Below are positions 1-51,895 of a DNA stretch of 64,000 bases, one piece after another (within the stretch, counting starts at the first letter, position 1; each line of letters opens with the position of its first letter). The notes under the pieces are model-generated. The model ran no database searches, was not told where the DNA came from, and worked only from the letters and a program-made list of their open reading frames with translations. Source of the stretch: an uncultured Ruficoccus sp. (GTDB lineage: Bacteria; Verrucomicrobiota; Verrucomicrobiia; Opitutales; Cerasicoccaceae); contig OZ223519.1 in NCBI GenBank assembly GCA_965140785.1, forward strand, positions 1-64,000. The letters are read 5' to 3'. Position numbers and translations under genes: made by a program.

Positions 1-341
1 TGACGGCCAGCCCCAACTGCGCACGCAACTGCTCCAGCGTCAGGTCCGGACTCTTCGCCAGCAGCTCACCAAGCCGCTGACGATGGACAGCCTTGATGGT
101 GGCCTTGCGACCACAGCGCGAATAGCCCGCTTCGATTCCTTTGCCGCTGCGGCGAAGCTGTAACAGCTTCTTGACCATCCCAAGCGAAACGCGAAAACGT
201 AACGCAATATCCTCACGCGTTCCTTCCCCGGCATCATACGCAGCCAAAATACGCTCCCCTCAAATCCATCGATAACGTGGCCATGAAAAACACGATGACC
301 AGTATTTTAGAAATGGCCACAACTTTATTTAAAATGCTCTA
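1..341 (-). mobile_element. IS630-family element, 5' part (transposase orfA starts at 284 and runs off the window)
   Basis: Minus-strand translation from ATG 284: MATLSMDLR, then an extra base in the C4 run at 256-259, then ERILAAYDAGEGTREDIALRFRVSLGMVKKLL...PDLTLEQLR, which resembles IS630 HTH orfA. The end reads TAGAGCATTTT at a TA inside CTAG (339-342). Not in the ORF track in this frame. Confidence 0.8.
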
Positions 342-782
342 GGCGGGCTCCTGAACTACTACCACCGGGTGCCGGACCCCGACGAGTCCCCGAAAAACAG
401 GGGAGGAGGTGCCCGAAGCGGCCTGAAAACCCACTAGTTAACAGCTTTTCGAGCTTCGGAGATTGCGGAGAAAATCTTCAACTTTCCGAAGAGTGCCTCG
501 CTTGGGCAGCCAAGATTTCCTTTCGGAAACTCTCCACGATTCCGATTGACTCCAGAGACCCGAGACCACGTTAGGCCAGGATTTTTATATTCCGCTGTCA
601 GCAAAGGCTTACGAAACCCACAGGCTCAGCTACGCTCTCCCTCTCCTTGGCCCGGAGAAACCCGACTGTAAGCGCTTTTTGCACCTAGGCCCCAAAATGG
701 CCGTTTTTCTCCGTTTCTCTGTCAGAGACGCAAAATAAGTTAACAAGGCGTCAGCCTCGCCCCGAGCCTGACTGTTTCGGAA
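339..782 (+). repeat. Long non-coding direct repeat, copy 1
   Basis: Colinear with 51449-51895 over its whole length, with scattered substitutions and indels; 723-782 is identical to 51836-51895 (60 bp). Confidence 0.97.
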
Positions 783-1034
783 TTACGATGCCGAACGATT
801 TCTCGGAGGAATGGCTTGTCATCGAGCAGGCTGGCAAGCGAGAACATGCCTCGGGCCATCCAGTAGCTGTCACAGTCCCATTGCTCAGCTTGGTAAATAG
901 ATCCGGGGACAAGGAAATCGTTTTTCAGTTCGCCGGTGCTGGCCTGGGCAGGCTGTTTGCTGCTTCAGGTAAAATAGAAAGACCGATGGTTTATATCGTC
1001 TTTTTCTGATTCGTTCAAAACGCAATGAGCAATC

Positions 1035-2524
1035 TCAGGCCCAAGCGTTTGGAATCCACTGGTCGTTGTTATCGCAATCGCTGACACCGACAACCCATTC
1101 CATTTTTCGGGCACACTCCGGCTTCCTTAAAACAGCCACGAGAGTATGCTCTCCTGCTGGTAGCACTGCATCGGTGGACTGATTGTTAGGTATCCGGTGT
1201 GGGGAGGGAGCCATGCGTCCAATCTCTCTGCCAAAGACATACTGGCCGTTCAGGAAAACCCGGCAGTTTTCATGGGTATTAAACATTACACGTGCCCGAG
1301 TCTGGCGTGTGAGTCTGAAACGATATTCAACGAAAACCGCACTTTGGTTAAATGCACTGGATTCTAAGGTAACAGAAGTCCCGGCGAAACGCGTAGGTTT
1401 CATCGGGGGCAGTGCCAGTTCCAAGTTATTTCCGATTTGCCAGCCATGTCCGAACCAGTCCACGTCGGAACACCCCAAGCGGGCAGGCACGGATAAATCC
1501 TTTGGCAGCGTTTGAGTGCTTGCCCGAATGGGGTCTTCCTCGTTCAGACGTTCACGGAGTCGGACTACCATGTCGGTGAATGCATCCAGCGATTCTGGCG
1601 GATTGATTCCAGTGATTTCAGGGCTCAGCACCAAGTTGCGCCAATCGGACGCAACCATTCCTCGCTGATCGAATCCGGGTTCATGATTCCCAGCAAGGCC
1701 CCAACGGTCGCTGCGGTGCAGTCAGTGTCTTTACCGCAATTGGCAGCCGTGCAGATGCTGCGGCTAAAATCACCCGCTCCGTCAAGAAGCGCGAGATAGA
1801 TGAATGCAAGGTTTTCTGTCACGTTGGTGAAATTCTCGTGACCGTATTTTTCCAGAATTGGCTTCGTACTTTTTTCCAGTCATGGCCCTCATCCCACCAG
1901 TGCTGGGTATCTTCGATGGCTTGGCGCAACTGCGTGCTCGCTGGGATATGATCGAAGCCAATGGCAATTACCTTGTGAATATCGCTCTCCTACAAAGGCT
2001 GCGCTCTGAAGGGCGGCGAGCCAGACTTCGGCCCATAGTCCGTCGTTTGCGTGGTCCAGGCAGGCATCTTCCCGCGCTTAGGCGGCGGCCAGAGCGGGAT
2101 CTCCAGGGGCCAGGCAGGCCCACAACTCGCTACGAATCGCCGCGCCCATGCCGTTGGCAAACCAATTATCATGGGAACCGGTCAATGGGGGCAGGATACC
2201 GTTTGCGAGATTTCGTTTGCATACTCCATACTCGTCCCACGGGAAGTTAATGTGCTCACGCCACCCTTTGATAAACAGATCCGGACAGATTCTTGCGTGC
2301 TCCTGCTCATCAAGCAGGCAGGCCCACAACACCTGAAGGTCCAGATCATCGTTGGGCAGCATGGTTTCTGGGACGGGGCGGTAAAAATCAAGATCAAGCG
2401 GACCGGCGTGCCCTTCGTAGGGCATGCCGAGTGTTCCGCCAACTGCTTTGCCAAGCCAGCAGCCCATTACTTTGTATTGATAATTCACTACATCGACTGA
2501 TGTTGAATGTGGGATCGATGTCAT
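1035..2524 (-). pseudogene. ADP-ribosylglycohydrolase family protein, disrupted
   Basis: GCWLGKAVGGTLGMPYEG, PNDDLD, GMGAAIRSE and GKDTDCTAATVGAL motifs are spread over ORFs 2078-2524, 1625-1822 and 1035-1658; in-frame TAA at 2078-2080 plus at least three 1-bp shifts. Confidence 0.85.
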
Positions 2525-2581
2525 TATTGCTGGGGGTTTAGTTATTATTCAGGCGGTTGCCGACTGGAATTGGCCCAATGA

Positions 2582-3981
2582 CTATTTAGTCGAAGTTGCT
2601 GGTAGCTGTGCTAGGTTCGCCAAGAGCTTCTCTCTAACATACAAGGCCGGAGCCTTGTTGGCTGGGACCTTTTTTTCTATGGATACCCGCAGCGATTGTG
2701 CCTGCTGCTTGGCCAATTGCCATCGCGATTGGGCTAACTCTTAGCGCAGCCATGGCTTCATGCGTGGCACTGATGCATCGCCCCTGCCAGAATCAAATTT
2801 TCAGGACTTTTCAGAAGCAGACAACGCATTGGAATCTGGTAACGCGTAGCAGGCTTTAAATGGTTTGATTCCGTCTCTGCTTTATCAGGAGAGTGGATAT
2901 CGATGGGATAACCTCCCAATGCGATGGCATCGTCAAAAGGCGTTTCGTTGAGTACATCTTCCTTGGTAAAGGTGTAAAGACCCTTGATTTGCCGCGTTTC
3001 TCGGACTCCAATTTGCGCGGCACTGTCCATACGTATTGCGTTTTCAAAACCACGACAGTAAGTCTTTAGAAAATTGAATATCTGCTGGTTTTGTTGGCGA
3101 CCAATGATTTCAGCTCGGCTTAGGTCGTAAGGATTGGTTCCATCTACGCCCTGTATTCGCGAGGTATTAACAATGACTACACCGGGTGTGGCGGTTTCGA
3201 ATAACAGGACAAACTCGCGTGGAACATTCACTTCTCCTCGCTCTCGAGCTGCTCTCCATGTCTTTACGTAAGCTTTTAGGCTGACGCGTGATGTAGTGCG
3301 CAAGCGACGCAACCCTTCCTCCGGGCCGAGATCAAACTCGAAATTATCCGGGTTTTGCAGCACGTCGCTCCTAACGGCGTCCATGTCGACGCTACCAATC
3401 TTGAGGTTCATAGTCATGGGCTGCGTGGCATTGTCACCAGGGCGGCCTTGTGTGAAGTCCGCGCCAAGTGCGGCCGATAAGTCACCATCACCAGTTGCAT
3501 CTATGTATATTTTGGCTGCATATCTCGCCAAGCCCGCTTTATTGCAGAGTCTGATTGATCGCACCTGATCATTTTCTAGCTCTGCATCTGCAAAATGTGT
3601 ATGGAAGAGTATGTTTCCTCCTGCTTTCAGGAGCATCGATTCTAATTCAATCTTCAGGGCCTCACTGTCAAAAGGAGTTACCGTTTTGCAGTAAGTGATG
3701 CTGTCTTCGATGTGACCTGGGCTGGCATGCTTGGCTACGAGTCTCTGTACCAGCTCTTCTGCTTGTCCTACGACGACCTGATCTCCGGCAGGATTGTGGA
3801 AGCTCATCATTGGGCCCACTCCCATTGCGGTTAAAGAACCACCTAGAAAACCATGTTTCTCGACGAGCAGCACTCGTAGTTTTTCTCGTGCTGCAGCAAT
3901 GGCTGCATGGCTACCGGATGGGCCTCCACCAATAACAATTACGTCATAGGTTTCGCTTTTTGAATTGGTGGGTGTAGTCAT
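2582..3981 (-). pseudogene. FAD-dependent oxidoreductase (FAD_oxidored type) with two frameshifts near the 3' end
   Basis: DVIVIGGGPSG, IDATGDGD, GVRETR. The conserved tail GRCISATHEAMAALRV...AMAIGQAAG is restored by removing an extra base at ~2781-2784, and the frame to the stop at 2582 by removing another at ~2686-2688. ATG 3981 overlaps the GntR stop. Confidence 0.8.
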
Positions 3982-4634
3982 TGCTGAAGCTTGAAAAACA
4001 TATCTCGTCCGCGTCGCAGGTGTTGCCGCATTGCGATTTCCGCTCTGTCGGCGTCCCCTGAGCACAATTCTTCAAGTAGATTGAAATGGTCGCTGGCCTT
4101 ATGGACGACAGGAGGGAGCAAATCGCGGATCCCATAGAACAGTCCCAACTGAACAACTCGGTCCAAAGGTCCGAAGGGTCAGCTCGGACTCGGTCATTTC
4201 AACCAATAGGCCGATGGAAAAGCATGTCCTTCTCAGTGCGATCGCTATCACTGTCATGGGCTTCATCAATTTCGTAGGCCAATACCTTTAAATGGCTCAC
4301 GTCTATTTTATGGAAGTAATGAAACATTCAAGCGGGCTACCATGCACTCGATTGCTTCGCGCAGAATAACCTGATCCCTCAGCAGCTTGAAGGTAGGTTT
4401 GCGAACGCGGGTGCCTCGGTTGGGAAGCGTTTCAAGGAAGCCTTCTCGGTCAAGCTGTACCATGGCTTCCAATACGGGCGCGACGCTCATCTTCAGTTCG
4501 GCAGCAACTTTACGACGATAGATCATGGCCCCTTTTGCCCACCGTCCGGACATCAGTCCTTTGAGGATGTAGGTGTATGCTGTGGATGAAAGGCTTTGGG
4601 GCTGGTTTTCAGTTCCCTGTGTAATTGGTCGCAT
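3978..4634 (-). pseudogene. GntR/FCD-family transcriptional regulator, frameshifted
   Basis: N-terminal wHTH (VAAELKMSVAPVLEAMVQLDREGFLETLPNRGTRV) in 4308-4634; FCD segments DMLFHR and GDADRAEIAMRQHL lie in other frames down to 3978. Confidence 0.8.
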
Positions 4635-4897
4635 GATTCCGATATATCGCAAATGTTTTTTTATGTAAATAAAAATAATGTTTTGGACGCAATGATTTTG
4701 TCGAATCTTGTTTTTGTTTTTTGTGTTTATTAATGTATTGAATACCAGTTGGATAATAGTTTTTTAGGATTTGTTTGGTTGCTGTTTGAGACTGCTTAAG
4801 AATTCTGTTTTTTTCGTCGTTGACAACACGGTCACCCTATGCTGATATATCGGTATTATTGTTGAAAATGATCCATAACACAAACACCAAGCACCCC

Positions 4898-5581
4898 ATG
4901 AAACTGAAAATAGCCCTATTGTCTTCACTCTTGTTCTGTGGCGTTTCAAACGCCTCAACTATTGTATGGTCAGCGACCGACAACCTGTACGCCACAAACT
5001 CCAATGACACGGTGCCAGGCTCTGGTGTCGGACAGCGCATCTTGGTTGGTTCAGGCTATGATAGCTATGTAACGTTTGACACTGACGGCACCTATGCGGA
5101 TGTGAGTCAGATTGAGTCTGCTATACTGCGTTTGTACTTGCCCTATAATTCCAGTAATACTTCCAGCGATATCGAGGTTACCGTGAATATGGTGCTGAAT
5201 AGCTATGATGACTGGACTACTTGGACGACGGACGATACGTATCCTGAGGCCGGGGACGTTATTTCGGTTAGCTATACGCTCTCTCCGTCTGCTGCGACGA
5301 TTGTTACTGGAACTGATACTAGCGGGGCTTGGTTTGAGTGGGACGTTACGGGGTTGGTAAAGATTCTGAATTCTGGCTTGGATAACAATATTGCGACATT
5401 CCTCCTCACTGCTTCCGATGGTAGTGTTTTTCGTTTTGAGGGGGTGGGGAACACCCTTGGTTCTGGAAATACGCCTCAGTTGGTTGTAACGGCTATTCCG
5501 GAGGCTTCGTCTGTTATACTGGGGGCTATGGCGTTTCTGATTCCGCTTCTTGCCAAAAAGAAGAACCGTCGCAATGCCTGA
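4898..5581 (+). CDS. PEP-CTERM-type surface protein with a DNRLRE/CBM96-like beta domain
   Basis: Signal peptide; SAILRLY, WFEWDVT, PQLVV; C-terminal IPEASS + hydrophobic helix + KKKNRR. Confidence 0.8.
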   Translation: MKLKIALLSSLLFCGVSNASTIVWSATDNLYATNSNDTVPGSGVGQRILVGSGYDSYVTFDTDGTYADVSQIESAILRLYLPYNSSNTSSDIEVTVNMVLNSYDDWTTWTTDDTYPEAGDVISVSYTLSPSAATIVTGTDTSGAWFEWDVTGLVKILNSGLDNNIATFLLTASDGSVFRFEGVGNTLGSGNTPQLVVTAIPEASSVILGAMAFLIPLLAKKKNRRNA

Positions 5582-5719
5582 TCATATTTGTCTATTTTGG
5601 ATCAAAAAAATAGGTGAAATGCTGAACTCTCCGGTGTGAATCGCTAGGAGACTGTAAGGGGTTGTTTTTGTCGCCCAACGGTGCCATGCCAATACCCGAG
5701 TTAATTGCAGGAGGTTCCA

Positions 5720-6481
5720 ATGAGCCCTGGATCTGACGAACAAAACCATTCAGAATGCGGATTTACTCTAGTTGAGCTTCTGGCTGCTGTTGCGGTGATG
5801 GCTATGCTGATAGTGGTTATTTTTACGGTGCAAGGGAATGTCCGACAAAAAGCCCAAGCAGCATCATGCTTGGGAAACTTACGCCAATTGGCGGCCGGCA
5901 GCTTGATGTATAGTGTTGATAATGGGAATGAGGCAGTCCCTATCTGTACGCGGGAAACAGCAGATAACGGCGGCTTTAAATATTCGACGTGGAGAGCATA
6001 TATCGCCCCCTACTGTGACACCCAGACGAATTCAGCAGACTCAATATTTCGATGCACTGGTGACGAAAAAATGTATGAGAAGGATGTCCGGTTGAGTGGG
6101 AATGGCGTTACACCGGCATCATACGGAATAAATATGAGTTCTAAGATACATGATTACCTCAGTAATAGCTACAACCAGACTCTTTCAGGTGTCGTTAATC
6201 CTGCCTCGACTATATTCATCGCCGAAATCGCCAAAGTAATAAACCCGTCAGATGCCCCTGCTTCATGGGTAGATTCCGGAGGTACCGGTAACTACGGCTA
6301 CGCCCGATTTCCAAATAGGTCTGGCTTCTACGGTTCCGATTCATGGGACATCTTTCCGCGGCACGGGGGAAGTAATCTCAATGTTGTCTTTTATGACGGC
6401 CATGCTGCCAGTGTCGACATTGTTAAGGACATCATTGATGCGCCACCCGGCACAGAAGAATGCATTTATGATAACCAATAG
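5720..6481 (+). CDS. Prepilin-type N-terminal cleavage/methylation protein with an H-X9-DG-like C-terminal motif
   Basis: GFTLVELLAAVAVMAML, SCLGNLRQL, FRCTGD, RHGGSNLNVVFYDGH; GGAGG precedes ATG 5720. Confidence 0.9.
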   Translation: MSPGSDEQNHSECGFTLVELLAAVAVMAMLIVVIFTVQGNVRQKAQAASCLGNLRQLAAGSLMYSVDNGNEAVPICTRETADNGGFKYSTWRAYIAPYCDTQTNSADSIFRCTGDEKMYEKDVRLSGNGVTPASYGINMSSKIHDYLSNSYNQTLSGVVNPASTIFIAEIAKVINPSDAPASWVDSGGTGNYGYARFPNRSGFYGSDSWDIFPRHGGSNLNVVFYDGHAASVDIVKDIIDAPPGTEECIYDNQ

Positions 6482-6520
6482 CATATTTGAATAACGTTAA
6501 ACCTGCTATCTTTTAAATTC

Positions 6521-7807
6521 ATGATGAAATTGAAACTCAGCTCAACGATCCTTTGCATAGCACTATTAACAGCTGTTGATCTGAATGCGGACGTTCAGGG
6601 GAATTTTCCGCTCCCTGAGTCACCCGCGCCTACGAGATCAATCACGGGAGAGAAGAAAAAGCTCAGTGCGACGCTGGGAAGGAAGTGGGCTGGTGGCACG
6701 CGATTGGACTATGTGCAGTGTAAGGGAGTGGGCTATGGACTTCCTGTGCCGCACGCACTCGATGTAGACAGCGTCGTTGTGACAGTCGGGGACCGTGTTC
6801 TCGTGAAGGGTAAGGACTATGAGATTAACAGCTTCTATGGCACATTGAGTCTGGCAGTGGGTTCTATCGTTTCTCCAGATACGGCAGTTTCTATCGACTA
6901 TGTCGTGGGCCACAGGCGAATTGACTCTGTCGTACAAACGTCTGCTGGTGATGTGGTGATTCGCCAAGGTGACCCCGCACTGGTGGCACCGCTTCCACCG
7001 CAGTTGACTGACGGTGAAAAGCGGCTGGGCAATTACTTCCTGGATTATTTTCAAACTCCTGAAGAGGCTGATTATTTTCCTTGTATAGAAACATCCGATG
7101 GGGCGGTCACGAAAACATCAGGCCGGAACCTAATCGAAGTACGGCAGAAGCTGGCGGCTGGTCAGGCGGTCAAAATTGTCTGCTGGGGTGACAGTATTAC
7201 TTTTGGCGGGGATGCTTCGTCAAAAGAGATGGCATATCCAGAAGTTTTGGAATGTCGCCTCAAACATCTTTATCCTCAGAGTCAGATCACGGTTAAGACT
7301 ATTGCCATAGGAGGGTCGCAGTCGCGTCAATGGCTGTACCCCGACCGCTATCAGCATCCGACGATGCAGAAGAATTGTCGCTTTGACCGCATTCTGGAGG
7401 AAAAGCCTGACGTGGTTACGGTCGAGTTCCTCAATGATGCCTATTTATCGAAGAAAGATGTCGAGTCCGCCTATACGGATATGATCAGTCGCTTCAAGGA
7501 CGCGGGAATTGAGGTCATTTTGATCACTCCTAATTTTACTATGCCGGAGATGATGAATGCGGACAATCTCCGAACCCAGGAGACTCGTCAATATGTCATC
7601 GCATTGCAGGATTTTGCCCAAGACAATGGCATTGCCTTGGCAGATACATCTTCACGTTGGGAGCATTTGTGGAAGGAAGGAATTCCCTACGTCACGATGA
7701 TCAACAATGGCATCAACCACGTTGATGACCGCGGGCATGCCATCTATGCGGATGAGATTATCGCATCTATACAGGATAACACTACCAATAAACTTAAAGA
7801 CCAATGA
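6521..7807 (+). CDS. Secreted SGNH/GDSL hydrolase (carbohydrate esterase-like)
   Basis: Signal peptide; WGDSIT, GG, EFLND and NHVDDRGH blocks. Confidence 0.85.
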   Translation: MMKLKLSSTILCIALLTAVDLNADVQGNFPLPESPAPTRSITGEKKKLSATLGRKWAGGTRLDYVQCKGVGYGLPVPHALDVDSVVVTVGDRVLVKGKDYEINSFYGTLSLAVGSIVSPDTAVSIDYVVGHRRIDSVVQTSAGDVVIRQGDPALVAPLPPQLTDGEKRLGNYFLDYFQTPEEADYFPCIETSDGAVTKTSGRNLIEVRQKLAAGQAVKIVCWGDSITFGGDASSKEMAYPEVLECRLKHLYPQSQITVKTIAIGGSQSRQWLYPDRYQHPTMQKNCRFDRILEEKPDVVTVEFLNDAYLSKKDVESAYTDMISRFKDAGIEVILITPNFTMPEMMNADNLRTQETRQYVIALQDFAQDNGIALADTSSRWEHLWKEGIPYVTMINNGINHVDDRGHAIYADEIIASIQDNTTNKLKDQ

Positions 7808-8982
7808 CGATCAAAATTTTAAGTAAGCTTTATGCGCTTGTTTATACGAGTACTGTAGTTGTTGCTGCGCACATTTGTATGGCTCAAGCACCGGATGCTA
7901 CCGCAGTGCCCGACGGATTGAAGATTGACGCTTTTCCGCGCCTGCGGGGGTTCACTATTAAGTATAATGCAGACGAAACCGTGATGGATGAGGTTGCGAA
8001 TAATTACCACGCAAACGCCGTACGCCTCATGCTGAGGCCTTATTTGCCGGGATCTAACACCTCGCAGAATCGTTGGGAGCGCATGTTGGAGAAACTACCC
8101 AGTCAAGTTGAGGCAGCTAGGAAAAACGGAATTTACGTTATAGTCGCCCTGTTCGGACCACCAATAGAAGGCTTCAAAGATAAGTACGACCGTGATCGGC
8201 GTGCCTTTAGTCATGAGTTTTGGACAGACGAGGCCAACCTGAATGCGATGATCGATCAGGCGGTTCAAACGGCTATGCTTTTGGAGCCCTACGAGGGCCA
8301 GGTTTGGCTGGAGCTTCGAAACGAACCAATTGATTGGACAGAGTTCCCGAGCCCAGTGTCTGTGTGGCCAGTGTGGTCCCAGCAAATAATTGACGCCGTC
8401 AGGGAAGTGAGTGATATCCCAATCGTTGTTCAGGTCGGCCCCGGCGGCCTTTGCTGGGGCTACAAAACGTTTCCTCTCTTGGAGGGGGAGAATATTATCT
8501 ACAGCGTTCATAACTACCAGCCGCACGCCTACACCCATCAAGGGATCAAGAATATCAGTGGAACTGACCTAGCCCACTCCTACGAAATGTCCAAGCAGCC
8601 GTGGCCAGGCGTCTTCTCCGATGGCGGCGGAGACTACTGGGATAAGGAACGCCTGCGCAAAGAACTCGAGCCAGCTATTAAATTTGCCGAGGAGCATCAT
8701 GTGAGAATGTACGTTGGTGAGTTCGGCGTGGCGCGGTGGGCTCCGAATGCTGACGACTACCTGCGGGACAACATCGAGTTGTTTGAAGAACTCGGTTGGG
8801 ATTGGACTTATCATGCCTACAGGGAGAGCGCGATATGGTCTCCCGAACATGATAGTGAATTTACGCGTCCAGCCCAACTCGCCACGAAGGAGACGGAACG
8901 AGCCAAGGTACTTAAAGAATATATGGAACAGAACACCCCATTCCCGAGAAACCAGCCAGAGGCGTCTAAAACTATCAAATAA
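7804..8982 (+). CDS. Glycoside hydrolase family 5-like (clan A)
   Basis: ELRNEP acid/base, YSVHNY, YVGEFG nucleophile, WDWTYH. Confidence 0.85.
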   Translation: MTIKILSKLYALVYTSTVVVAAHICMAQAPDATAVPDGLKIDAFPRLRGFTIKYNADETVMDEVANNYHANAVRLMLRPYLPGSNTSQNRWERMLEKLPSQVEAARKNGIYVIVALFGPPIEGFKDKYDRDRRAFSHEFWTDEANLNAMIDQAVQTAMLLEPYEGQVWLELRNEPIDWTEFPSPVSVWPVWSQQIIDAVREVSDIPIVVQVGPGGLCWGYKTFPLLEGENIIYSVHNYQPHAYTHQGIKNISGTDLAHSYEMSKQPWPGVFSDGGGDYWDKERLRKELEPAIKFAEEHHVRMYVGEFGVARWAPNADDYLRDNIELFEELGWDWTYHAYRESAIWSPEHDSEFTRPAQLATKETERAKVLKEYMEQNTPFPRNQPEASKTIK

Positions 8983-8989
8983 TCCATCT

Positions 8990-10438
8990 ATGGATAAACA
9001 TCAGAAAGGTCACCAATTAAAGAGAGTTCGTTCGGGACTTGCCATGATTCCATTTGTGCTAGATTCGAGAAACGCCGTCGAGGGGGCTGAATTATTTTTT
9101 CCAGAACCCGAGATACTCGGGTACACGGGCGGGACGGGCTTCGGGCTGACCGGGCTTTACGGCAACCATATGGCTTCAATTGTCCCGCTCGATTCGGTGG
9201 CCAGCAGTTGCCGTGTTTACCTGACAAGGCGGACATGGCACGGCGAAACATCATCTATGGACTTGGGTTATGTTGACGCTCATGACGTACAGACATGGCC
9301 GTCCATCGCCGGTCATTACCGTTCGCTCATCATTGACGGGTTGCCGAAGGGCTGTCAGGCCTCACAGCCGTACGTCATCCGGAGAGAGGAACATTTCGAG
9401 TTGTTTTTCTGGGTCCATGGTGGGGATATGGTTCGCTATGTGAAGTGCAGCAGTTCGGATGGTATTCGCTTCCAAATAGAGAATCTCGATAATCCCTGTC
9501 TATACCATCCCAACGACAAGGCTGTTCGTGCGACTGGACTTTTGCATGGATTTTCGCTGAACCGTGGCCGAATGGATAACGCGAGCGCCACAAGCATACA
9601 CGTGTTGAATCGAGTCTCGAATGATGCAACAACCGTTAATTTTGATCACCGGATCAGTCTCTACCAAATGTATTCCGTGCTCATGCTTGAGGCCGCTGAT
9701 ACACCCAAGCGGCGGATCGGGTTCGATAATATTCCAGATTTCCTGAGAGTCATTCACCGCAGAACCAGTCCCGATGGGATCGAATGGTCGGAACCGGAGA
9801 TTGTGCTTGCTCCTGATTCGGAGGATCCGGTTGATTTGCAGTTCTATGTCATGCAGCAGGCGGTTGCCGCTCAGGGTGCTTACTTGGTTGCCGGATACTA
9901 CCCTGGGAACGAACAGACTATGGAATTGATGCCTGCGTTGACGCTATATGGACAGCATATTCAGCGTCCGAGGCTGCCATGGCGGATTCGCGAACAGCTT
10001 CCGTCGCGCGACTGGCAACCACAGATGCTCTTGCCCGGCGGGATGATTGAATCAGGTGGGTATGTATATGTCTCGGCGACTGCCTGCAACTACCGGCACA
10101 ATGAAAGAAGCATGCCTGGAGAAGCCCGCCGTCAGGAGAATCTGGTGCTGCGCCAGCTCAAAGAGCGGTGGGTGGGATACAAGAACCACGAGGGACACAT
10201 CGGACGCCTCGTGACGACTCCTTTTCCGTACGAGAGGTTGCGTATCATCGCAGCCGATGTTGGCAGGGTCCATTTGACCTTACTCTCAGTTTTTGGGTCT
10301 GAACTGGTCCGTGGGGGGACGCTCGACCATGACGGATCGATTTGTTTTCAGAACAACGTCGACTCTGCATGGGAGGGCAAGTGGGTGCGCTTGGCCGTGG
10401 ATTTTGATACCGAGGTCTTTGGACTCAAATCGCAATGA
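8990..10438 (+). CDS. Hypothetical protein, probably a beta-propeller glycosidase-like fold
   Basis: Asp-box-like SSDGIRF and SPDGIEW; RVSNDA; ATG 8990 lies just after the GH5 stop. Function uncertain. Confidence 0.55.
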   Translation: MDKHQKGHQLKRVRSGLAMIPFVLDSRNAVEGAELFFPEPEILGYTGGTGFGLTGLYGNHMASIVPLDSVASSCRVYLTRRTWHGETSSMDLGYVDAHDVQTWPSIAGHYRSLIIDGLPKGCQASQPYVIRREEHFELFFWVHGGDMVRYVKCSSSDGIRFQIENLDNPCLYHPNDKAVRATGLLHGFSLNRGRMDNASATSIHVLNRVSNDATTVNFDHRISLYQMYSVLMLEAADTPKRRIGFDNIPDFLRVIHRRTSPDGIEWSEPEIVLAPDSEDPVDLQFYVMQQAVAAQGAYLVAGYYPGNEQTMELMPALTLYGQHIQRPRLPWRIREQLPSRDWQPQMLLPGGMIESGGYVYVSATACNYRHNERSMPGEARRQENLVLRQLKERWVGYKNHEGHIGRLVTTPFPYERLRIIAADVGRVHLTLLSVFGSELVRGGTLDHDGSICFQNNVDSAWEGKWVRLAVDFDTEVFGLKSQ

Positions 10439-10485
10439 ACCCGACTGTTTAGGACAGCTTAAATGACAACCTTAAATATATCATC

Positions 10486-11448
10486 ATGAAGAACCCCATC
10501 ATTCGAATGGTTGCTCCACTTAGTCCGCTGAAAGCTGACGGCTCACTTAATCTGGCTGTGGTGGAACGCCAAGCCAGACTCTTACTGACTCGTGGTGCGC
10601 AAGGGTTTTATCTTTGCGGAGGAACTGGTGAAGGCCAGCTTCTCACCGTAGCTGAGCGTGAGAAGATCGCGGAAGCGTGGCGTGAGGCGTTGCCGTCCGA
10701 TGTCACCATGATCGTTCACGTCGGTTGTGCCAGCCCTATGGATGCGATGGAATTGGCCCGTCATGCGCAATTGATTGGAGCCAGCGGTATTTCGTCTGTG
10801 ACACCGTCTCCTTATGCGGCCCGAGATATGGCTGCGCTTGTCTCGCATTTTGCAGCCATTGCGGCAGCTGCGCCCGAATTGCCTTTTTACTATTACCACA
10901 ATTCCTCGGCACCGGGCCTACGGATTAAAGCCGCTGATTTTCTGGCCGTGGCAAGTGCCAAGATACCAACGTTAGGAGGCGTCAAATATACGGATGCAGA
11001 CTTGATGGATCTCAGTTGTGCGCTGCGTTATGAGGATGGGCGCTACAATGTTCTTTTCGGAAAGGACGAGATGGCGCTCGGTGCACTGGCAATGGGAGTG
11101 CGTAGTTTTGTCGGTGGGTCCTATAATATTTTAAGCCCGCTGCTTTGCCGCATTATAAATGAATGGGAAAAGGGCTGCGCTGAAAAGGCTCGTCTTATAC
11201 AGGATGTATTGGTCGATGCCATTGCGGTCTTTGGGCGATTCGGTGGTCTTGGTGCTCTCAAGGCTGCGACTTTGGCGCTGGGCATCGACTTGGGCCCGAT
11301 GCGACTCCCGCTGCCAACAGTCTCACGGGAGGACGTTCCCAGACTGCATGCTGAACTCGATAAGGTGTGGCCCGCATGGCGCGAGACCCCAGAGGGAATC
11401 GCACCCGACCGTCTTTCCCCCACGGAGTCAAATAAATGTCAGGTGTGA
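10486..11448 (+). CDS. DHDPS / N-acetylneuraminate lyase family aldolase
   Basis: GGTGEG, IVHVG, LPFYYYH, GVKYT Schiff-base Lys, FGKDE, GGSYN. Confidence 0.9.
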   Translation: MKNPIIRMVAPLSPLKADGSLNLAVVERQARLLLTRGAQGFYLCGGTGEGQLLTVAEREKIAEAWREALPSDVTMIVHVGCASPMDAMELARHAQLIGASGISSVTPSPYAARDMAALVSHFAAIAAAAPELPFYYYHNSSAPGLRIKAADFLAVASAKIPTLGGVKYTDADLMDLSCALRYEDGRYNVLFGKDEMALGALAMGVRSFVGGSYNILSPLLCRIINEWEKGCAEKARLIQDVLVDAIAVFGRFGGLGALKAATLALGIDLGPMRLPLPTVSREDVPRLHAELDKVWPAWRETPEGIAPDRLSPTESNKCQV

Positions 11449-11554
11449 AGGGAAGAAAAACACTATCCTCATTTTTATGCCTTCAGCGAGCCGCTTATGC
11501 CACCTCTGCGCTCTTGGTTCAGGGTTTGTTCGAATACAAAAATCTAATCTTTAA

Positions 11555-14401: not shown

Positions 14402-14511
14402 CTTACCGTCGGTTTAATAGCGTTTGGGTGCCCTTTATTTGTGATAGCAATATTGGTATTTAATTAAAATAAAGTATCACAATTAGAATGTTTAATGCAA
14501 TAAGTAGTATA

Positions 14512-45600: not shown

Positions 45601-46854
45601 CCCGCCACGAGCGTGGAGTTCGCCTTCACCGACGACGGCACGAACTGGGAAAACAACGGGGGCAGCAACTACACGATCAACTCCTCCGGGACCTACACGG
45701 TCGATCCGGTTTCCGGGACGATCATGAGCGGCGAGCCCAAGAGCTTCACGGTTTACTACTTGCCGCCCGCCGGTTGGACGTCCGTGAAGATGCACTACCA
45801 GGCCAACGGCGGAGACTGGACGGCGTTCCCCGGCGTGTCCATGGCGACCAGCTCGCTGGACCCGGACTACGTCGAGCTGAGCGTGTATGCCAACGAGCTG
45901 ACCCAGGTGGCCTTCACCGATGACGGCACGAATTGGGAAAACGACTCCGGCTCAAACTATGCGCTCACCCTGCCGGGCACGTACACGATCGACTCCACGG
46001 ACAACTCCGTCGTCAGCGGGACACCGGGCGGCATCCGTCTCTATTATGAAACGAGCTGGAGCACCCCGTACATCCACTACAATGCCGATGGGGCCGGCTG
46101 GACGACCACTCCGGGCGTGCAGATGCAGTCCACCGCGCTGTCGAACTTCAAGTACATCGAGATCAACGCCCAGAGCCTCGAGTTCGCGTTCAATGACGGC
46201 AACGGCACCTGGGACAGCAACAACGGGAGCAACTACGCCATCACCCAGCCCGGACTCTACACGGTGGGCTTCGGGGGTAACCTGCTGCCCGATTATAATC
46301 CGATCAGGATCGAGATCTACTACGATTCGGCCTTCACGCCGCAGACGCATATCCACTACAATGTGGACAACAAGGGCTGGACGACGCTCCCCGGCGAGCT
46401 GATGGTCGAGGACGCGAACTTCCCCGGTTATGCTTACCTCGCGATCGAAGGCACCTCGGTCGAGTTCGCCTTCACGGACGACGGCACAAACTGGGAGAAC
46501 AACTCGGGCAGCAACTACACGATCAGTGCTCCGGGCAAATACTCCATCGACGCGGCCACCCACAGCGTCAGCTCCGGCTATCCGGCTGTGACGATCTACT
46601 ACGCGACGACCTGGAGCCAGGCAAACATCCACTACAACGCCGACAGCGCCGGGTGGACCGCCCTGCCGGGCGTGACCATGGCGAACAGCTCCGTGCCGGG
46701 TTACAAGGTCATCACCCTCGACGCGACCGCGGTGGAGTTCGTCTTCAACAACGGCAGCGGCACCTGGGACAACGGTAGCGGTTCGAACTACACCGTCAGC
46801 GCCAAGGGTATCTATACCGTGGATAACGGCGTCCTGAGTGTCGGCGCACCTTGA
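42685..46854 (+). CDS. Secreted GH31 alpha-glucosidase/transglucosylase with five C-terminal CBM25-like repeats
   Basis: FDIDY, GIWNDLNE nucleophile, WSGDN acid/base, FFRNH; five HY...WT..PG...F.F.D....W.N..GSNY repeats. Confidence 0.92.
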   Translation: MMKKYKNAAGLKGLGAQRIALFVALLFFGWSTALFGQTVTVGSVTSATTATESGKQKAVFALSTGGVCEVIPYAPDLIRVKFDWGGIESHEDVAIAKPLDQWPAFSATFTDGTVYTIETDELIVHVTKSPSLKIDFIDKTQSGQYLLRDKRMEYDTGYDPYNDTSFQLLKNSNNIAAWYRVRVVKESPSNESYFGLGEVPFQLNRRGQVVQGWNSDAFYWNQDKNPMYMTMPFMYGVQAATSTQPGFTYGVFWNNPARPNFMFQKERPYGGAQRGQLTTVSDQFSFEATEGYIDYFFFGGGDDHTPAQVLSRYSELTGLPTLPPRWAMGHHLSRWTYTEDQMRNVVATARAQGYPLDAVYFDIDYMDSDPHIVPPGGTFDDNEYRGNNDMRQLTFQDDPNNANYWFKDGVSLISYLHSSHVNAVPLIEAWVTTPDPLWSEANSASHLVKSNNGSSAVAWLFFGDVSFIDFTSSSAQSWWKTKQKNYLNTYAFDGIWNDLNEQADERDTVAQSQPIPLNGLYSTDGRYGSSTSDYRRQQIYLKNTYNVYQASNTYATLAEQYPNRRPFVLSRAGWPGIQRYAFNWSGDNVNESAGSGYGQVPSLRVGLSTMISGQVYFGHDLGGFLGDVSSASMARWAQWCSLMPFFRNHSGKWDQLREPWLYANAAQIKSAIEMRYALMPYLYSLAYRASQTGLPLNNPMFFSFPDDSQTHQASSDTDFMVGPFLMASPVYQTGATQRSSYLPSGTDWYYWYGDAFHSGGSTVTKSTPIDVMPMYVTEGAIIPMGPVMEYANEYQAEQLLFHVWPGDETTTFTLYEDDGESFDYASGEYAITPLTNSTNAGVWTFTIGAKQGTYDHGHTSYMVARHAIDTPTTVQIGGVAADPYPSLSALEAEDTGYYYDSSARTLYLKTDETEQSVSITATDSTANQITIYYITDFAERIHYDAGIDGSWTTFPGELLYSSVYPGVKAVTIPATSVEFAFTDDGTNWENNGGSNYTINSSGTYTVDPVSGTIMSGEPKSFTVYYLPPAGWTSVKMHYQANGGDWTAFPGVSMATSSLDPDYVELSVYANELTQVAFTDDGTNWENDSGSNYALTLPGTYTIDSTDNSVVSGTPGGIRLYYETSWSTPYIHYNADGAGWTTTPGVQMQSTALSNFKYIEINAQSLEFAFNDGNGTWDSNNGSNYAITQPGLYTVGFGGNLLPDYNPIRIEIYYDSAFTPQTHIHYNVDNKGWTTLPGELMVEDANFPGYAYLAIEGTSVEFAFTDDGTNWENNSGSNYTISAPGKYSIDAATHSVSSGYPAVTIYYATTWSQANIHYNADSAGWTALPGVTMANSSVPGYKVITLDATAVEFVFNNGSGTWDNGSGSNYTVSAKGIYTVDNGVLSVGAP

Positions 46855-48374: not shown

Positions 48375-51272
48375 ATGAACCGCTTTGTCTCCCACGCTTG
48401 TCCGCTTCTGCCGGTTGTTTTCGTCATGTTGACGTTGGGCAGCCTTGTCTCGCACGCCGAATGGTATTTTCGGGGAACCCCGAACGGCTGGGACGCCGCG
48501 CCGATGACCCAGGTGGATGCGACCACTTACGAGATCGTTCAGAGCTTTGACGGCGAGGACACCAACGCCCGTTTCAAGATCGACCGCAGCGGTGACTGGG
48601 CCGAGAGCTACCCGGCGGCGGACCGCGTGGTCGATGACCACAAGACCTACCGCATCACGTTTGACACGGTGTCCAAGTCCATCACGACCGAGGAGATTCT
48701 GCCGCAGCAGACGTGGTACTTTCGCGGCACGCCCAACGCCTGGAATACGGCGGCCATGACCTACCTCGGCGCGAACCTGTACGAGTACATCGCCACCTTC
48801 GGTGGCGAGGAGAGCCCGGCGCGGTTCCTCATCGACCATACGGGGGACTTCTCCGAGCGCTATCCCGCGCAGGACTATCCGGTGGACGATTATAAAACGT
48901 ACCGCATCCTTTTTAACCAAGCGACCCAGGCGATCACGACGGAAGAGATCTGGTTGCCCGACACGTGGTATTTCCGCGGGACACCCAACGCCTGGAACAT
49001 GGCCGAGATGACGCGCCTGTCCACCAATACCTACGAGTATATCGCCACCTTCGATGGCGAGGAGAGCCCGTCGCGGTTCCTCATTGACCACACAGGCGAT
49101 TTCTCTGAGCGCTATCCTGCGCAGACGGATGTCAACGTGACCGATCAACGTATTTACCGGATCACCTTCAACAGCGACACGAAGGCGATCACGACGGAGG
49201 AGCTGGGAGTGATTGAGCCCTGGTATTTTCGCGGCACACCCAACGCCTGGAACACGGCGCAGATGACGCATCTGGGCAACGGTTATTACGAGTACATCGC
49301 CACGTTTGACGGCGAGGAGAGCCCGGCGCGGTTCCTCATCGATCGTTATGGCGATTTCTCTGAGCGATACCCGGCGCAGGACTATCCCGTTCAGGATCAC
49401 AAGACCTACCGCATCCTCTTCGATATCCTGACCAAGACGATCACCGTGAGCGAACTCGGCGTGAGCGGCGGGGATTTTCGGGAGGAGACGATCTATTTCG
49501 TGATGACGACGCGTTTCTACGACGGCGACCCCTCCAACAACATGAAGTGCTGGGACGGCGGCCTGAACCCCAGTACGGATCCGGCCTGGCGGGGAGATTT
49601 CAAGGGGCTGATCGAAAAGCTCGACTACATTAAGGCACTCGGTTTCTCGGCTATCTGGATCACCCCGGTGGTGAAAAACGCCAGCGGCTATGATTACCAC
49701 GGCTATCATGCCATCGACCACAGCAAGGTGGATTTCCGCTACGAATCCGCGGGCGTGAGCTACCAGACCCTGATCGATGAAGTGCATGCGCGGGGGATGA
49801 AGCTCGTTCAGGACATCGTACTCAACCACAGTTGCAACTATGGCGAGGAAAACCTCTACCCACTCTTCCAGCGTTCGGAGACGATCAACTTCAATGAAAC
49901 CGCCGACAGCGCCGTCACCATCGACGATCCGATGGGAGTGCTGCCGCTGGACTACGCGAGCCTGGCTCCGAATAACCAGTACGGTGCCCGCATTGACGCT
50001 ATGAAGGAGGACGCCAACGATGTGGACTTTATCTACCATCACGAGAAATCGCTTCAGTGGGAGGGCTACACGGTGCAGACCGGACAGATCGCCGGTGACA
50101 CGGTTGATCTTAATACGGAAAATCCCGTGACGGCGCAGTACCTGATCGACGCGTATAACCAGTACATTGATATGGGCGTGGACGCGTTTCGCATCGACAC
50201 GGTGAAGCATATCTCGCGGCTGACGTTCAACAACACGTTTGTCCCGGCCTTCAAACAGCGCGGGGGCGAGGACTTTTTCATGTTCGGCGAGATCGCAAGC
50301 CGTTACCGCCAGGTTTGGAACAGTAACATCCCTGCCATCTCCACCCCGTTCTATACCTGGGCCGAGACCGTGTCCTATCCGTGGGGTACACGCACGCTTA
50401 ACGAAGCTTCCGTCTACCAGCACTGGCAGGACAACTCGACGGTGGACAACGAGCCGATGAGCAACAATCACCGGCTCCTCGGCAACGACTATCACACGCC
50501 GGACTATTCGCTGAACTCGGGGATGGCGGTGATCGACTTTCCCATGCACTGGAACTTCCAGTACGCGGCCGATGCCTTCGGCGTCGCGGTGGGCGGGGAC
50601 CTGTGGTACAACGACGCCACGTTCAATGTGACCTACGTGGACTCGCACGATTACGCCCCGGATGGCGCGCCGGAGAACCAGCGCTTCGCGCAGCCTCAGG
50701 ACAGCTGGGCGGAGAACCTGAGCCTGATGTTCACGTTCCGTGGCATCCCGTGCATTTACTACGGCAGTGAGATCGAGTTCCAGAAAGGCATGCCGATCGA
50801 TGTCGGGCCGAATCAGCCGCTCTCGCAGACCGGGCGGGCATACTACGGAGATCATCTGCAGGGCAGCGTGTCCGTGAGTGATTTCGGCCAGTACAGTAGC
50901 GCCAGCGGCGAGATGGCCACTACCCTCAGCCATCCGCTGGCTCAGCATATCCGCCGCCTGAACCAGATCCGGCGTGCCGTGCCGGCCTTGCAAAAGGGGC
51001 AGTACTCGACCGACGGCATCAGCGGGGGAATCGCTTTTAAGCGCAGGTACACGGATGCCGAGACGGATAGCTTTGTTTTGGTGGCGATCAGCGGCGGAGC
51101 GACCTTTAGCGGCATCCCCAACGGAACTTATGTGGACGCCATTACCGGGGATGTGCAGAATGTCGTAGCGGGTAGCTTGTCGGCCTCTGTCAGTGGCAAG
51201 GGCAATATGAAAGTTTATGTGCTCAATGGCCCCGGAAAGATCGGCGAAGACGGGACTTACCTCAAGCCGTAA
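48375..51272 (+). CDS. Secreted GH13 alpha-amylase with four N-terminal WYFRGTPN repeats
   Basis: GDFKGL, YHGYH, DIVLNH, FRIDTVKH, GEI, DSHD. Confidence 0.92.
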   Translation: MNRFVSHACPLLPVVFVMLTLGSLVSHAEWYFRGTPNGWDAAPMTQVDATTYEIVQSFDGEDTNARFKIDRSGDWAESYPAADRVVDDHKTYRITFDTVSKSITTEEILPQQTWYFRGTPNAWNTAAMTYLGANLYEYIATFGGEESPARFLIDHTGDFSERYPAQDYPVDDYKTYRILFNQATQAITTEEIWLPDTWYFRGTPNAWNMAEMTRLSTNTYEYIATFDGEESPSRFLIDHTGDFSERYPAQTDVNVTDQRIYRITFNSDTKAITTEELGVIEPWYFRGTPNAWNTAQMTHLGNGYYEYIATFDGEESPARFLIDRYGDFSERYPAQDYPVQDHKTYRILFDILTKTITVSELGVSGGDFREETIYFVMTTRFYDGDPSNNMKCWDGGLNPSTDPAWRGDFKGLIEKLDYIKALGFSAIWITPVVKNASGYDYHGYHAIDHSKVDFRYESAGVSYQTLIDEVHARGMKLVQDIVLNHSCNYGEENLYPLFQRSETINFNETADSAVTIDDPMGVLPLDYASLAPNNQYGARIDAMKEDANDVDFIYHHEKSLQWEGYTVQTGQIAGDTVDLNTENPVTAQYLIDAYNQYIDMGVDAFRIDTVKHISRLTFNNTFVPAFKQRGGEDFFMFGEIASRYRQVWNSNIPAISTPFYTWAETVSYPWGTRTLNEASVYQHWQDNSTVDNEPMSNNHRLLGNDYHTPDYSLNSGMAVIDFPMHWNFQYAADAFGVAVGGDLWYNDATFNVTYVDSHDYAPDGAPENQRFAQPQDSWAENLSLMFTFRGIPCIYYGSEIEFQKGMPIDVGPNQPLSQTGRAYYGDHLQGSVSVSDFGQYSSASGEMATTLSHPLAQHIRRLNQIRRAVPALQKGQYSTDGISGGIAFKRRYTDAETDSFVLVAISGGATFSGIPNGTYVDAITGDVQNVVAGSLSASVSGKGNMKVYVLNGPGKIGEDGTYLKP
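48461..49460 (+). repeat. Four ~253-bp intragenic tandem domain repeats
   Basis: Units begin near 48461, 48713, 48965 and 49221; units 2-4 are very similar at the DNA level. Confidence 0.9.
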
Positions 51273-51448
51273 GCTGTTGCTGATCGCGTACGCCACTTTT
51301 AGTATACATAATTATTATAAGTATGTAATTTCTGAGGAGATATCGATTTTGTGAAATATATTATATTATTAAAGTGTTGGTGAGGTGATCGGAAACGATG
51401 AAATATGTTATGTGACCTCTACCGGGCCTGATCGTTAAACGTGGACGG

Positions 51449-51895
51449 CTAGGCGGGGCTCCTGAACTACGACCACCGGGTACCGGACCCCGATGAGCCC
51501 CCAGAAAAAGGGAGGGAGAGCCCGAAGCAGCCTGAACCCCCATTAGTTAACAGCTTTTCAACCACCGGAGATTGCGGAGAAAATCTTCAACTTTCCGAAG
51601 AGTGCCATGCTTGGGCAGCCAAGATTTCCGTTCGGAAACTCTCCCCGCTTCCGATTGACTCCAGAGACCCGAGACCACGTTTGGCTCGGGATTTTTTATA
51701 TCCCGCTGTCAGCAAAGGCTTACGAAAGCCACCCACACGGGACCGCTCTTCCTCTCCCTGCCATCTGAGAAACTGGCCTGTTAAGCACTTTTCGCCCACC
51801 GGCCCCCAAATGGCTCTTATTCTCCGTTTCTCCGCCAGAGACGCAAAATAAGTTAACAAGGCGTCAGCCTCGCCCCGAGCCTGACTGTTTCGGAA
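51449..51895 (+). repeat. Long non-coding direct repeat, copy 2
   Basis: Colinear with 339-782; the terminal 60 bp are identical. Confidence 0.97.

Follow-up and report, generated by a model that had tools for sequence, protein, structure and literature searches.

The first 64 kb (64,000 nucleotides, hereafter the window) of a 399-kb contig (C48; OZ223519.1) from an uncultured Ruficoccus sp. (assembly GCA_965140785.1, 4.36 Mb in 50 contigs; Verrucomicrobiota, Cerasicoccaceae) contain two direct copies of a repeat of about 445 bp, designated R. R is probably the attachment (att) region of temperate tailed phages that enter the 3' end of a tRNA-Asn(GTT) gene, and the unit enclosed by its two copies would be a defective prophage locked in an array of such elements. 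Each copy of R comprises a right arm (R1), a core, and a left arm (R2); the flank beyond the tRNA-Asn target is termed B', and the successive units of the array are termed E0, E1, and E2, with E1 being the interval between the two window cores. Four other species of the genus (G048, G094, G011, and G229) served as comparison genomes. Gene content was read from Pfam and PHROGs profile searches, and RNA genes from Rfam and ARAGORN. The Pfam scan left out a 398-amino-acid (aa) open reading frame (ORF) among the G094 tail genes and two G048 ORFs, which were covered by a six-frame search for tyrosine integrases (PF00589).

Repeat searches and pairwise alignment place the two copies of R at about 339/345-782 (copy A) and 51449/51456-51895 (copy B), with sharp edges. 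They are 86% identical (BLAST) and start 51,109-51,113 bp apart, so that the pair of long, direct, non-coding copies about 51.1 kb apart noted in a preliminary description of this DNA (339-782 and 51449-51895) stands. Insertions and deletions between the copies are 1-2 nt long and not multiples of three, and an ORF overlaps R at copy B only, which indicates that R is non-coding. Rfam returned 0 matches and ARAGORN 0 tRNAs in the 64-kb window. Of 21 candidates scored across the assembly, 2 match R, both being the window copies, and within the order R was found in 11 of 401 genomes, with all four genus-mates (4/4) carrying it. Both window copies retain a complete core and dyad; core A sits inside the dyad CTTGG-GCAG-CCAAG (501-514). 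The parts of the two copies are as follows.

339-503, plus strand: R1 arm of copy A (right-end, P arm), 96.5% identical to the lone R1 of G094 C53
504-512, plus strand: core A, GGGCAGCCA, equal to the last 9 nt of tRNA-Asn(GTT) and the common breakpoint of lone halves
513-782, plus strand: R2 arm of copy A (left-end, P' arm), with the hairpin TTTCC-TTTC-GGAAA and terminator-like hairpins
51424-51612, plus strand: R1 arm of copy B, the right end of E1, placed by alignment
51613-51621, plus strand: core B, GGGCAGCCA, placed by alignment
51622-51895, plus strand: R2 arm of copy B, the left end of E2, placed by alignment

The two arms of R also occur apart from one another. In G094 two copies span only query positions 1-174/180, a third is truncated, and two more span only 166-444; G048 has one right half of the 166-444 type and one full copy. 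Lone R1 halves end at the 9-mer GGGCAGCCA (G094 C53, C19, and C31), and lone R2 halves start at the same 9-mer (G048 C34, G094 C11, and G094 C28), with the lone R2 of G229 C83 starting within or just after a degenerate core. A public contig assembled from run X2 matches the window beginning exactly at position 504, with unrelated letters before it. In both G048 and G094 C11 a complete tRNA-Asn(GTT) gene lies to the left of R2, and its final 9 bases including CCA are GGGCAGCCA. The tRNA gene stays complete in both genomes, the sequence after CCA being supplied by R2, as would be the case if the tRNA were rebuilt on insertion. In G011 the tRNA-Asn gene is joined directly to the flank that follows the lone R1 in G094 C53 and C31 (88% over 1,169 bp), and its left flank matches the tRNA side of G094 C11. 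Four att forms are thereby represented on one 9-bp core: attB, tRNA-Asn joined to B' (G011); attL, tRNA-Asn joined to R2 (G048 and G094); attR, R1 joined to B' (G094); and an attP-type form, R1-core-R2 (twice in the window, and in G048 and G011). Because the lone halves all break at GGGCAGCCA, full copies are interpreted as attP-type junctions between adjacent units, and both window copies are, as judged from sequence, P-O-P' (attP-type) junctions. The preliminary description had offered a tandem array as one of two models; the placement of the repeats at unit boundaries in an array agrees with it, but the repeat is not the simple right end that was envisaged, since each copy combines R1, core, and R2. 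Linkage of the repeats to the recombinase module, also proposed there, holds in this genome, where the only two copies both lie at unit boundaries.

E1 measures 51,109 bp between cores and consists, in order, of R2, a 13.7-kb foreign glycan block, a phage replication block, a stub of a virion module, a DUF2924-recombinase module, a 23.5-kb starch cassette, and R1. A replication core, a DUF2924/serine recombinase module, and two glycan cargos between the repeats had all been noted in the preliminary description, and the Pfam and PHROGs matches bear this out; the HTH gene that it placed third in the recombinase module is a putative assignment for the 129-aa ORF. The phage-derived part comprises the following features.

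14474-22046, plus strand: phage replication block, 88-91% nucleotide identity to G048 and G094, with a 133-aa ORF first and two unassigned ORFs after the primase
15177-16172, plus strand: Sak4-like ATPase (AAA_24; Pfam and PHROGs, Sak4 E 2e-61)
16369-16800, plus strand: SSB (Pfam and PHROGs)
16535-18293, plus strand: helicase, frameshifted (Pfam and PHROGs)
18293-20482, plus strand: primase/AAA_25 (Pfam and PHROGs)
about 21927-22048, plus strand: small-terminase stub, cut after about 39 codons
22047-25078, no strand assigned: segment at the position where a virion module of about 25 kb stands in G094, holding small unassigned ORFs
22064-23155, minus strand: Fic-MerR gene (Pfam)
23425-24128, no strand assigned: phage remnant, 89% to G094
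25109-27723, plus strand: integration module, beginning with a 3' remnant of the last tail gene
25474-26007, plus strand: DUF2924 gene (Pfam)
25892/25985-27337, plus strand: large serine recombinase, full-length ORF
27334-27723, plus strand: 129-aa ORF with no Pfam match, matching phrog_14161 (label 'recombinase', category 'other')

The block from 14474 to 27696 is single-copy in the source genome and matches G048 and G094 at 88-91% nucleotide identity, with up to 99% identity at the protein level. Starting at the tRNA, G094 has R2, then a LacI-like gene and a GH2/MFS block, followed by the replication block, the virion module, DUF2924, recombinase, the small ORF, and a type I restriction-modification block. 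The G094 virion module encodes small terminase, large terminase (GpA type), portal, S49 protease, major head, tape measure, baseplate hub, and tail proteins. The sole close viral record is a viral contig 100% identical to this virion region, and represents G094's own prophage. In G048 the block lies between the R2 half at tRNA-Asn and a full R copy 49.8 kb off, and the DNA on either side of the block differs. A common order is thus shared by the window, G048, and G094, namely R2, 10-14 kb of cargo, the replication core, the virion module where present, the DUF2924-recombinase module, further cargo, and R1. Since a complete virion module is bracketed by the same modules in G094, the R family is assigned to temperate tailed phages.

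E1 is, on this comparison, classed as a capsid-less and decaying derivative of a G094-like phage, and the prophage-derived, capsid-less character proposed in the preliminary description gains a relative with a full virion module. What G094 has between the stub of the small terminase and the 3' end of its last tail gene is missing from the window. Loss of 2 bp near 17608 shifts the frame of the helicase gene, which is intact (548 aa) in G048 and G094, and the two resulting pieces match consecutive parts of phrog_16. An in-frame 6-bp deletion near 16763, relative to the same two genomes, is also present. No virion or conjugation families were matched in the window by Pfam or PHROGs, as the preliminary description had stated, and the sole packaging-type match is a weak secondary one to the Sak4 ATPase (E 2e-7 vs. 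2e-61 for Sak4). Seven G094 virion proteins were searched for in the source assembly; tape measure, hub, and tail protein were found, all on C4 beside copies of an IS3-family insertion sequence (IS), and no homologues of terminase, portal, protease, or capsid were found in that assembly. A 274-bp region upstream of the small-terminase stub has been kept, with three copies of GTGTAAAG, and is a candidate packaging or regulatory site. The intergenic sequence from 21655 to 21927, with a terminator hairpin and the three GTGTAAAG motifs, is present in G094 too. The Fic-MerR gene is a fusion of Fic/DOC and a MerR helix-turn-helix (HTH) domain in one 363-aa ORF, common to the G048 unit and absent at this position from the intact G094 phage. 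The three units measure 49.8, 51.1, and, without IS, about 55 kb, two of them being short of the approximately 25 kb of virion genes; these similar sizes are compatible with a packaging-size constraint (n = 3). The right breakpoint of the virion deletion coincides exactly with a third core 9-mer at 25100-25108, which follows an alternative arm-like flank (25079-25108 with the 9-mer, plus strand). The window holds 3 such 9-mers vs. 0.77 expected, and the source genome 65 on both strands. The left flank of the third 9-mer is identical at 21 of 30 positions to the foreign flank that joins R2 at 504 in the X2 contig; its resemblance to R1 was rejected as not significant, with 12-15 of 300 shuffles reaching the score. 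This 9-mer may be the half-site scar of recombination with a pseudo-site.

The sequence of events that would best account for these arrangements begins with a phage integrating at the 3' end of tRNA-Asn(GTT), likely by means of its own large serine recombinase, which is encoded in an operon with DUF2924 and the small ORF. A full copy of R (R1 + GGGCAGCCA + R2) would arise between units integrated side by side, and the array may have formed via integration into an occupied site or into a secondary site. E1 would descend from a G094-like phage that lost its terminase-through-tail genes, suffered a frameshift in its helicase gene, and became locked in the array, and would, by some presumed route, have acquired its cargo. 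The usual partners in serine-integrase recombination are attP and attB, or attL and attR when a directionality factor is present. As E1 is flanked by two P-type sites and has no normal serine-integrase substrate pair, its present-day excision is doubtful.

The enzyme acting at R is likely the serine recombinase. Its gene product matches the Pfam domains Resolvase (E 2.4e-37), Recombinase (E 2.8e-8), and Zn_ribbon_recom (E 8.6e-5, with a score of 23.3 bits, under the Pfam cut-off of 25.3), and the integrase family phrog_95 of PHROGs (E 4.9e-95). The recombinase, DUF2924, and 129-aa ORFs are all full-length in the window (88-93% identity to G048 and G094). No recombinase other than the serine recombinase lies inside R-bounded intervals. 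The six-frame PF00589 search found no tyrosine integrase in the window, on the 81-kb G048 contig C34, or in G094 C11:1-51665. Within the order, recombinases 51-53% identical to that of E1 adjoin tRNA-Asn (G182) or tRNA-His (G263 and G027). Among cross-phylum recombinases of 41-62% identity, a tRNA gene lies within flanks of up to 3 kb at 19 of 79 loci, and at 12 of those 19 it is tRNA-Asn(GTT), in every case on the recombinase strand and 1.1-2.2 kb upstream. At 7 of the 8 loci that were annotated, the DUF2924 gene lies directly 5' of the recombinase gene. The DNA that follows CCA has one layout across loci (first 70 nt or so, L066-L139), in which a short inverted repeat is combined with a GTTAAC-type motif and a terminator hairpin; it holds across phyla and at tRNA-Asn, tRNA-Lys, and tRNA-Met loci alike. 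DUF2924 is reported to match in part the RAMA DNA-binding domain (PMC11342252), and in the Wolbachia phage WO a recombinase is described immediately downstream of a DUF2924 protein (PMC10299305). The literature found on DUF2924 concerned Wolbachia only. Literature on serine integrases at tRNA genes, or on prophage polysaccharide loci in Verrucomicrobia, yielded no such system among the matches listed, which is no proof that it is unpublished.

A number of observations weigh against R being the att region of a serine-recombinase phage at tRNA-Asn. The attP of a serine integrase is normally about 50 bp, extended arms and a target at a tRNA 3' end being characteristic of tyrosine integrases; the R arms, at 165 + 270 bp, are kept at 84-97% across the genus. 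A published estimate likewise places serine-integrase attP sites at about 40-50 bp (PMC12286644), and 16 attB sites of tyrosine integrases (Int-Y) are reported to overlap tRNA or tmRNA genes (PMC10654092). The recombinase gene is about 25 kb from either end of E1, unlike the att-adjacent genes of its distant relatives. A tyrosine integrase gene (IntY) lies just beyond attR in G094 (C53:1-1236), with the end of its ORF entering R1, and a weak tyrosine-recombinase-like ORF abuts the R2 of G094 C28. Another tyrosine integrase gene is found just past the G011 tRNA-Asn, in the same flank, so that the junction of tRNA-Asn with B', although free of R, is not bare chromosome. The assignment of the G094 attR to C53 runs through a multi-copy IS at contig ends. 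In the source genome the array is not beside the tRNA-Asn gene (C50:38182-38256), which other DNA follows; the B' flank is absent from this assembly, and the left end of the array is a contig break. Viral contigs scanned for the 20-nt R junction gave 0 matches, and no free phage genome with a contiguous R1-core-R2 was found there.

One rival explanation takes R as the attP of a tyrosine-integrase system at tRNA-Asn, the enzyme being supplied by a neighbouring IntY island or by a gene since lost, and the serine recombinase using some other site. The tRNA 3' end target, the long conserved arms, and a 9-bp core with inverted repeats do form the classical picture of such systems, IntY genes lie directly past attR in G094 and past tRNA-Asn in G011, and the source genome has a second island type at tRNA-Asn, marked on C49 by a tyrosine integrase and a tRNA repeat of 47 nt. 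However, no R-bounded interval contains a tyrosine integrase, and neither does G048 C34; the IntY of G094 C53 has no homologue in the source assembly (tblastn, E 1e-8), though R junctions exist there; and the IntY island's own end is unlike R2. The recombinase clade is itself linked to tRNA-Asn across phyla (12 of 79 loci), and the borders of the conserved core vary (14474 vs. 14519; 27696 vs. 27668), so that no alternative att site is visible for it. A tyrosine system is accordingly considered unlikely. About equally improbable is the other model of the preliminary description, in which the two repeats flank one active, excisable island resembling the staphylococcal cassette chromosome (SCC), and the recombinase joins copies A and B to move 51 kb together with both glycan loci. 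The full-length and well-conserved recombinase, DUF2924, and 129-aa ORFs, the intact core and dyad of both R copies, the comparable size and layout of the units in G048 (49.8 kb) and G094, and the occurrence of the starch cassette at three sites in three genomes would all suit an active island. Such an island is made doubtful by flanking sites that are both of the P-O-P' type, by the frameshifted helicase and the small terminase reduced to a stub, and by the G094 and G229 cassettes, which have no core, full repeat, or recombinase alongside. Public assembled contigs contained, among the matches listed, no hybrid circle junction of R1 (copy B) with R2 (copy A) and no deletion junction, but copy B was outside the 20-kb span searched and rare forms are lost in contigs, so that this result has no bearing on excision.

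Mobility may instead be confined to the conserved core of about 13 kb (14474-27696), with the repeats and glycan blocks being host DNA that happens to lie nearby. Homology does stop at the core borders, the flanks differ in all three genomes, the viral contig that matches G094 stops at the core's left border, and the starch cassette occurs elsewhere without the core. From one genome pair to another, the borders nevertheless shift by 28-45 bp and lie within genes or at their edges, a distance of 10-14 kb separates the core from an R2 end in 3 of 3 genomes, and in the G011 comparison the whole block from tRNA to R1 is inserted at one nucleotide-precise junction; a mobile core alone is thus very improbable. 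Least credible of all is the notion that R, as a dispersed gene for a non-coding RNA or as a regulatory element, has no role in recombination. R is non-coding, has hairpins, and is 84-97% conserved across species, as such an element might be, but it has 0 Rfam matches, its halves occur apart and break at a 9-mer equal to the tRNA 3' end, and its 2 copies in the source genome are both at unit boundaries. A phage att region at tRNA-Asn(GTT) remains the probable identity of R.

Two blocks of glycan-utilization genes make up most of the remainder of E1.

783-14473, no strand assigned: cargo 1, low-GC glycan block, with Pfam matches to FAD_oxidored, GntR, CBM96, N_methyl, GDSL, GH5, DHDPS, and FAD_oxidored, and a 168-aa ORF
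27776-51319, no strand assigned: cargo 2, starch/alpha-glucan cassette, with a solute-binding protein (SBP) and 2 permeases, N_methyl, LacI, a 6-hairpin glycoside hydrolase (GH), and GH66
within 27776-51319, no strand assigned: further genes of cargo 2, namely a pullulanase-type GH13, a GH31 with 5 CBM25, a MalK-type ATPase, and a GH13 amylase

The starch cassette is a discrete 23.5-kb block that fills the space from the 129-aa ORF to R1. It recurs in G094 C35 (90-95% identity), between a type I-C CRISPR-Cas locus and tRNA-Leu, and in G229 C92 (88-92% identity), between housekeeping genes and tRNA-Asp; the source genome has a matching cassette-free site on C34 around 73.65-73.95 kb. Backbone flanks are 74-84% identical to G094 and 77-91% to G229, so that the excess identity of the cassette is clear for G094 and weak for G229. 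The presence of the cassette at three different, non-syntenic sites in three genomes points to mobility and not to ancestral synteny, and on these comparisons the cassette is judged to have moved recently among congeners, with the phage-derived unit as its putative vehicle. Relatives do carry the starch locus apart from the core and repeats, an outcome that the preliminary description had considered, but not in the syntenic position that it had envisaged. No recombinase, full R, core, or tRNA-end repeat was found beside the cassette in G094 or G229. The R1-like DNA after the G229 cassette amounts to about 40 bp only, with no match by blastn-short, and site-specific insertion of the cassette at tRNA-Asp (G229) or tRNA-Leu (G094) finds no support, there being no bounding direct repeat of at least 11 nt of the tRNA 3' end. 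The CRISPR-Cas locus directly upstream of the G094 cassette (L057:9365-17150) encodes Cas3, Cas5d, Csd1, and Cas1. Within the window cassette, the GH31 gene contains five repeats of about 280 nt encoding CBM25 (45613-46828) and the amylase gene three repeats of about 250 nt (48648-49379).

Cargo 1, whose GH5/CBM96/GDSL/DHDPS part occupies about 2.7-13.6 kb, has a GC content of 0.514 vs. 0.590 for the genome and atypical codon usage, and no orthologue of it was found in the 4 genus-mates. The core (0.592) and the starch block (0.611) have genome-like GC, and the right flank is at 0.54. GC was rejected as a marker of unit boundaries, since atypical values are confined to cargo 1 and the right flank and genome-like values in the core and starch block leave the unit undelimited. 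The 168-aa ORF (13771-14381) belongs to a family of 12 copies in the genome, with no Pfam or PHROG match; its other copies are followed by a gene of about 1.7 kb that is missing in the window, where the breakpoint is 14160/14161. Glycan genes occur in each of the three units, as GH5/GDSL (window), sulfatase/GH130/MFS (G048), and GH2/MFS (G094), in keeping with the variable cargo of the preliminary description. Glycan genes are abundant in these genomes, however, and shared glycan cargo alone therefore proves little. The second cargo block of G048 (L019:5345-18338, L020; C34 about 55-76 kb) resembles a defense island, with genes for AAA, DUF6079 (1,243 aa), a 937-aa N6_N4 methylase, AAA_15/DUF3696, and an SNF2 helicase, followed by GT4-radical SAM and methyltransferase genes.

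Units on either side of E1 are represented in the window by short segments.

1-338, no strand assigned: tail end of E0, with the contig end at left, leaving just 338 bp of sequence before copy A
2-247, minus strand: ORF in E0 with a weak HTH_32 match only (E 0.0058, below cut-off)
51961-52935, minus strand: LacI-like regulator, first gene of E2, 98% aa identity to the first gene of the G094 prophage
53047-54361, minus strand: IS3-family element (orfA/orfB) of 1,315 bp that cuts E2, with at least 10 further copies at 98-99% identity

Window positions 51613-53046, encompassing the R2 of copy B and the LacI-like gene, have 96% nucleotide identity to the left end of the G094 prophage on C11. The window is thus read as the end of one unit, the whole of E1, and the start of a third unit cut by IS3 after 1.4 kb. 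Copies of IS3 also lie on other contigs of the source assembly (C4, C10, C13, C39, and C50), and several copies abut phage fragments, namely a tail module (C4), a recombinase 3' end (C50), and the LacI-like gene (window). These positions suggest that IS3 broke up one or more prophages. About 4.3 kb downstream of the C50 tRNA-Asn, beside IS3, the 3' end of the recombinase gene recurs together with the small ORF at 86% identity. C49 carries at about 12610-12656 a 47-nt repeat of the 3' part of tRNA-Asn, with a tyrosine integrase nearby at 13577-14056. This tRNA-Asn seems also to serve a second family of islands, of the tyrosine type (C49; C50:38257 onward).

Several known systems resemble the array in part. 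In lambda polylysogens adjacent prophages are separated by an attP site, and here too full R copies stand between units and lone halves at the outer ends by the tRNA and the downstream flank. Unlike lambda arrays, the units differ in content, one has no virion genes, the enzyme is most likely a serine recombinase, and the array is not seen at the tRNA. The temperate phages phiC31, Bxb1, and A118 have large serine integrases; with these and phage WO, taken together, the present system shares an integrase of Resolvase, Recombinase, and Zn-ribbon domains, a short common core, the DUF2924-recombinase gene pair, and a large accessory module next to the integration module. It differs from serine-integrase phages in an attB at the extreme tRNA 3' end, conserved arms of about 445 bp, a recombinase far from both ends, and the lack of virion genes in E1. 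SCC and SCCmec elements encode a large serine recombinase, carry variable cargo, enter the 3' end of rlmH (orfX), and have integration-site repeats for each unit. E1 likewise combines a large serine recombinase with helicase/primase/SSB-type genes and variable cargo, has no capsid or transfer genes, has the 3' end of a conserved gene as its target, and shows short site repeats marking each unit as in composite arrays. The SCC-like label of the preliminary description can be retained for this functional resemblance but not for membership: the target is tRNA-Asn and not rlmH, the relatives are complete phages, the Sak4, SSB, helicase, and primase are of phage types, and the phylum is different. 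The likeness is best regarded as functional analogy, and the nearest relatives found for the recombinase are prophage recombinases paired with DUF2924. Lambda dgal is a defective specialized transducing phage, and the phage-inducible chromosomal islands (PICI) and P4 are phage satellites of about 10-18 kb. E1, like these, is phage-derived and devoid of virion genes, and it retains functions for integration and replication and possibly a packaging region; like lambda dgal, it has a size near that of the parent phage and host-type genes beside the att site. Both att arms are kept in E1, however, whereas aberrant excision as in lambda dgal would replace one, and at 51 kb E1 is far larger than known satellites and has no recognized helper-hijack genes. 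Polysaccharide-utilization loci ride integrative conjugative elements (ICEs) in Bacteroidota, which resemble E1 in having whole glycan-degradation loci within a site-specifically integrated element; E1 differs from them in its phage-derived vehicle, its serine integrase, its lack of conjugation genes, and its occurrence in Verrucomicrobiia. Like tyrosine-integrase tRNA islands, the R family enters the 3' end of a tRNA gene and leaves that gene complete, as seen in G048 and G094, but E1 has no internal tyrosine integrase. By analogy, then, E1 would work like an SCC composite island or a tandem lysogen while being a member of neither family.

The long repeat can now be viewed as a defined recombination system with a core, two arms, a tRNA-Asn target, and a candidate enzyme. 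Serine integrases are usually described as needing short sites only and avoiding tRNA genes. If confirmed, the system would represent a tRNA-targeting serine-integrase clade with DUF2924 as a constant partner and long arms, and would bear on integrase biology and on genome-engineering toolkits. A wider proposal, for the present speculative, is that DUF2924-partnered serine integrases form a widespread clade using tRNA 3' ends (mostly tRNA-Asn) with long attP arms that are perhaps bound by DUF2924, and that in this genus capsid-less derivatives of about 50 kb, in which the virion block has been exchanged for 10-24 kb glycan cassettes, are packaged by helper phages from the same family via the retained packaging region. 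In more ordinary terms, E1 is a decaying prophage in an IS3-broken region, and the earlier view of it as a single excisable unit has become doubtful given its two P-type sites, frameshifted helicase, and terminase stub. In Verrucomicrobiia, phage-derived units hold carbohydrate-degradation blocks of 10-24 kb within att boundaries. This offers a possible route by which glycan-use traits may spread in a phylum for which there is little record of mobile polysaccharide loci, and, if the wider proposal is true, capsid-less units would constitute a phage-based shuttle for whole polysaccharide loci.

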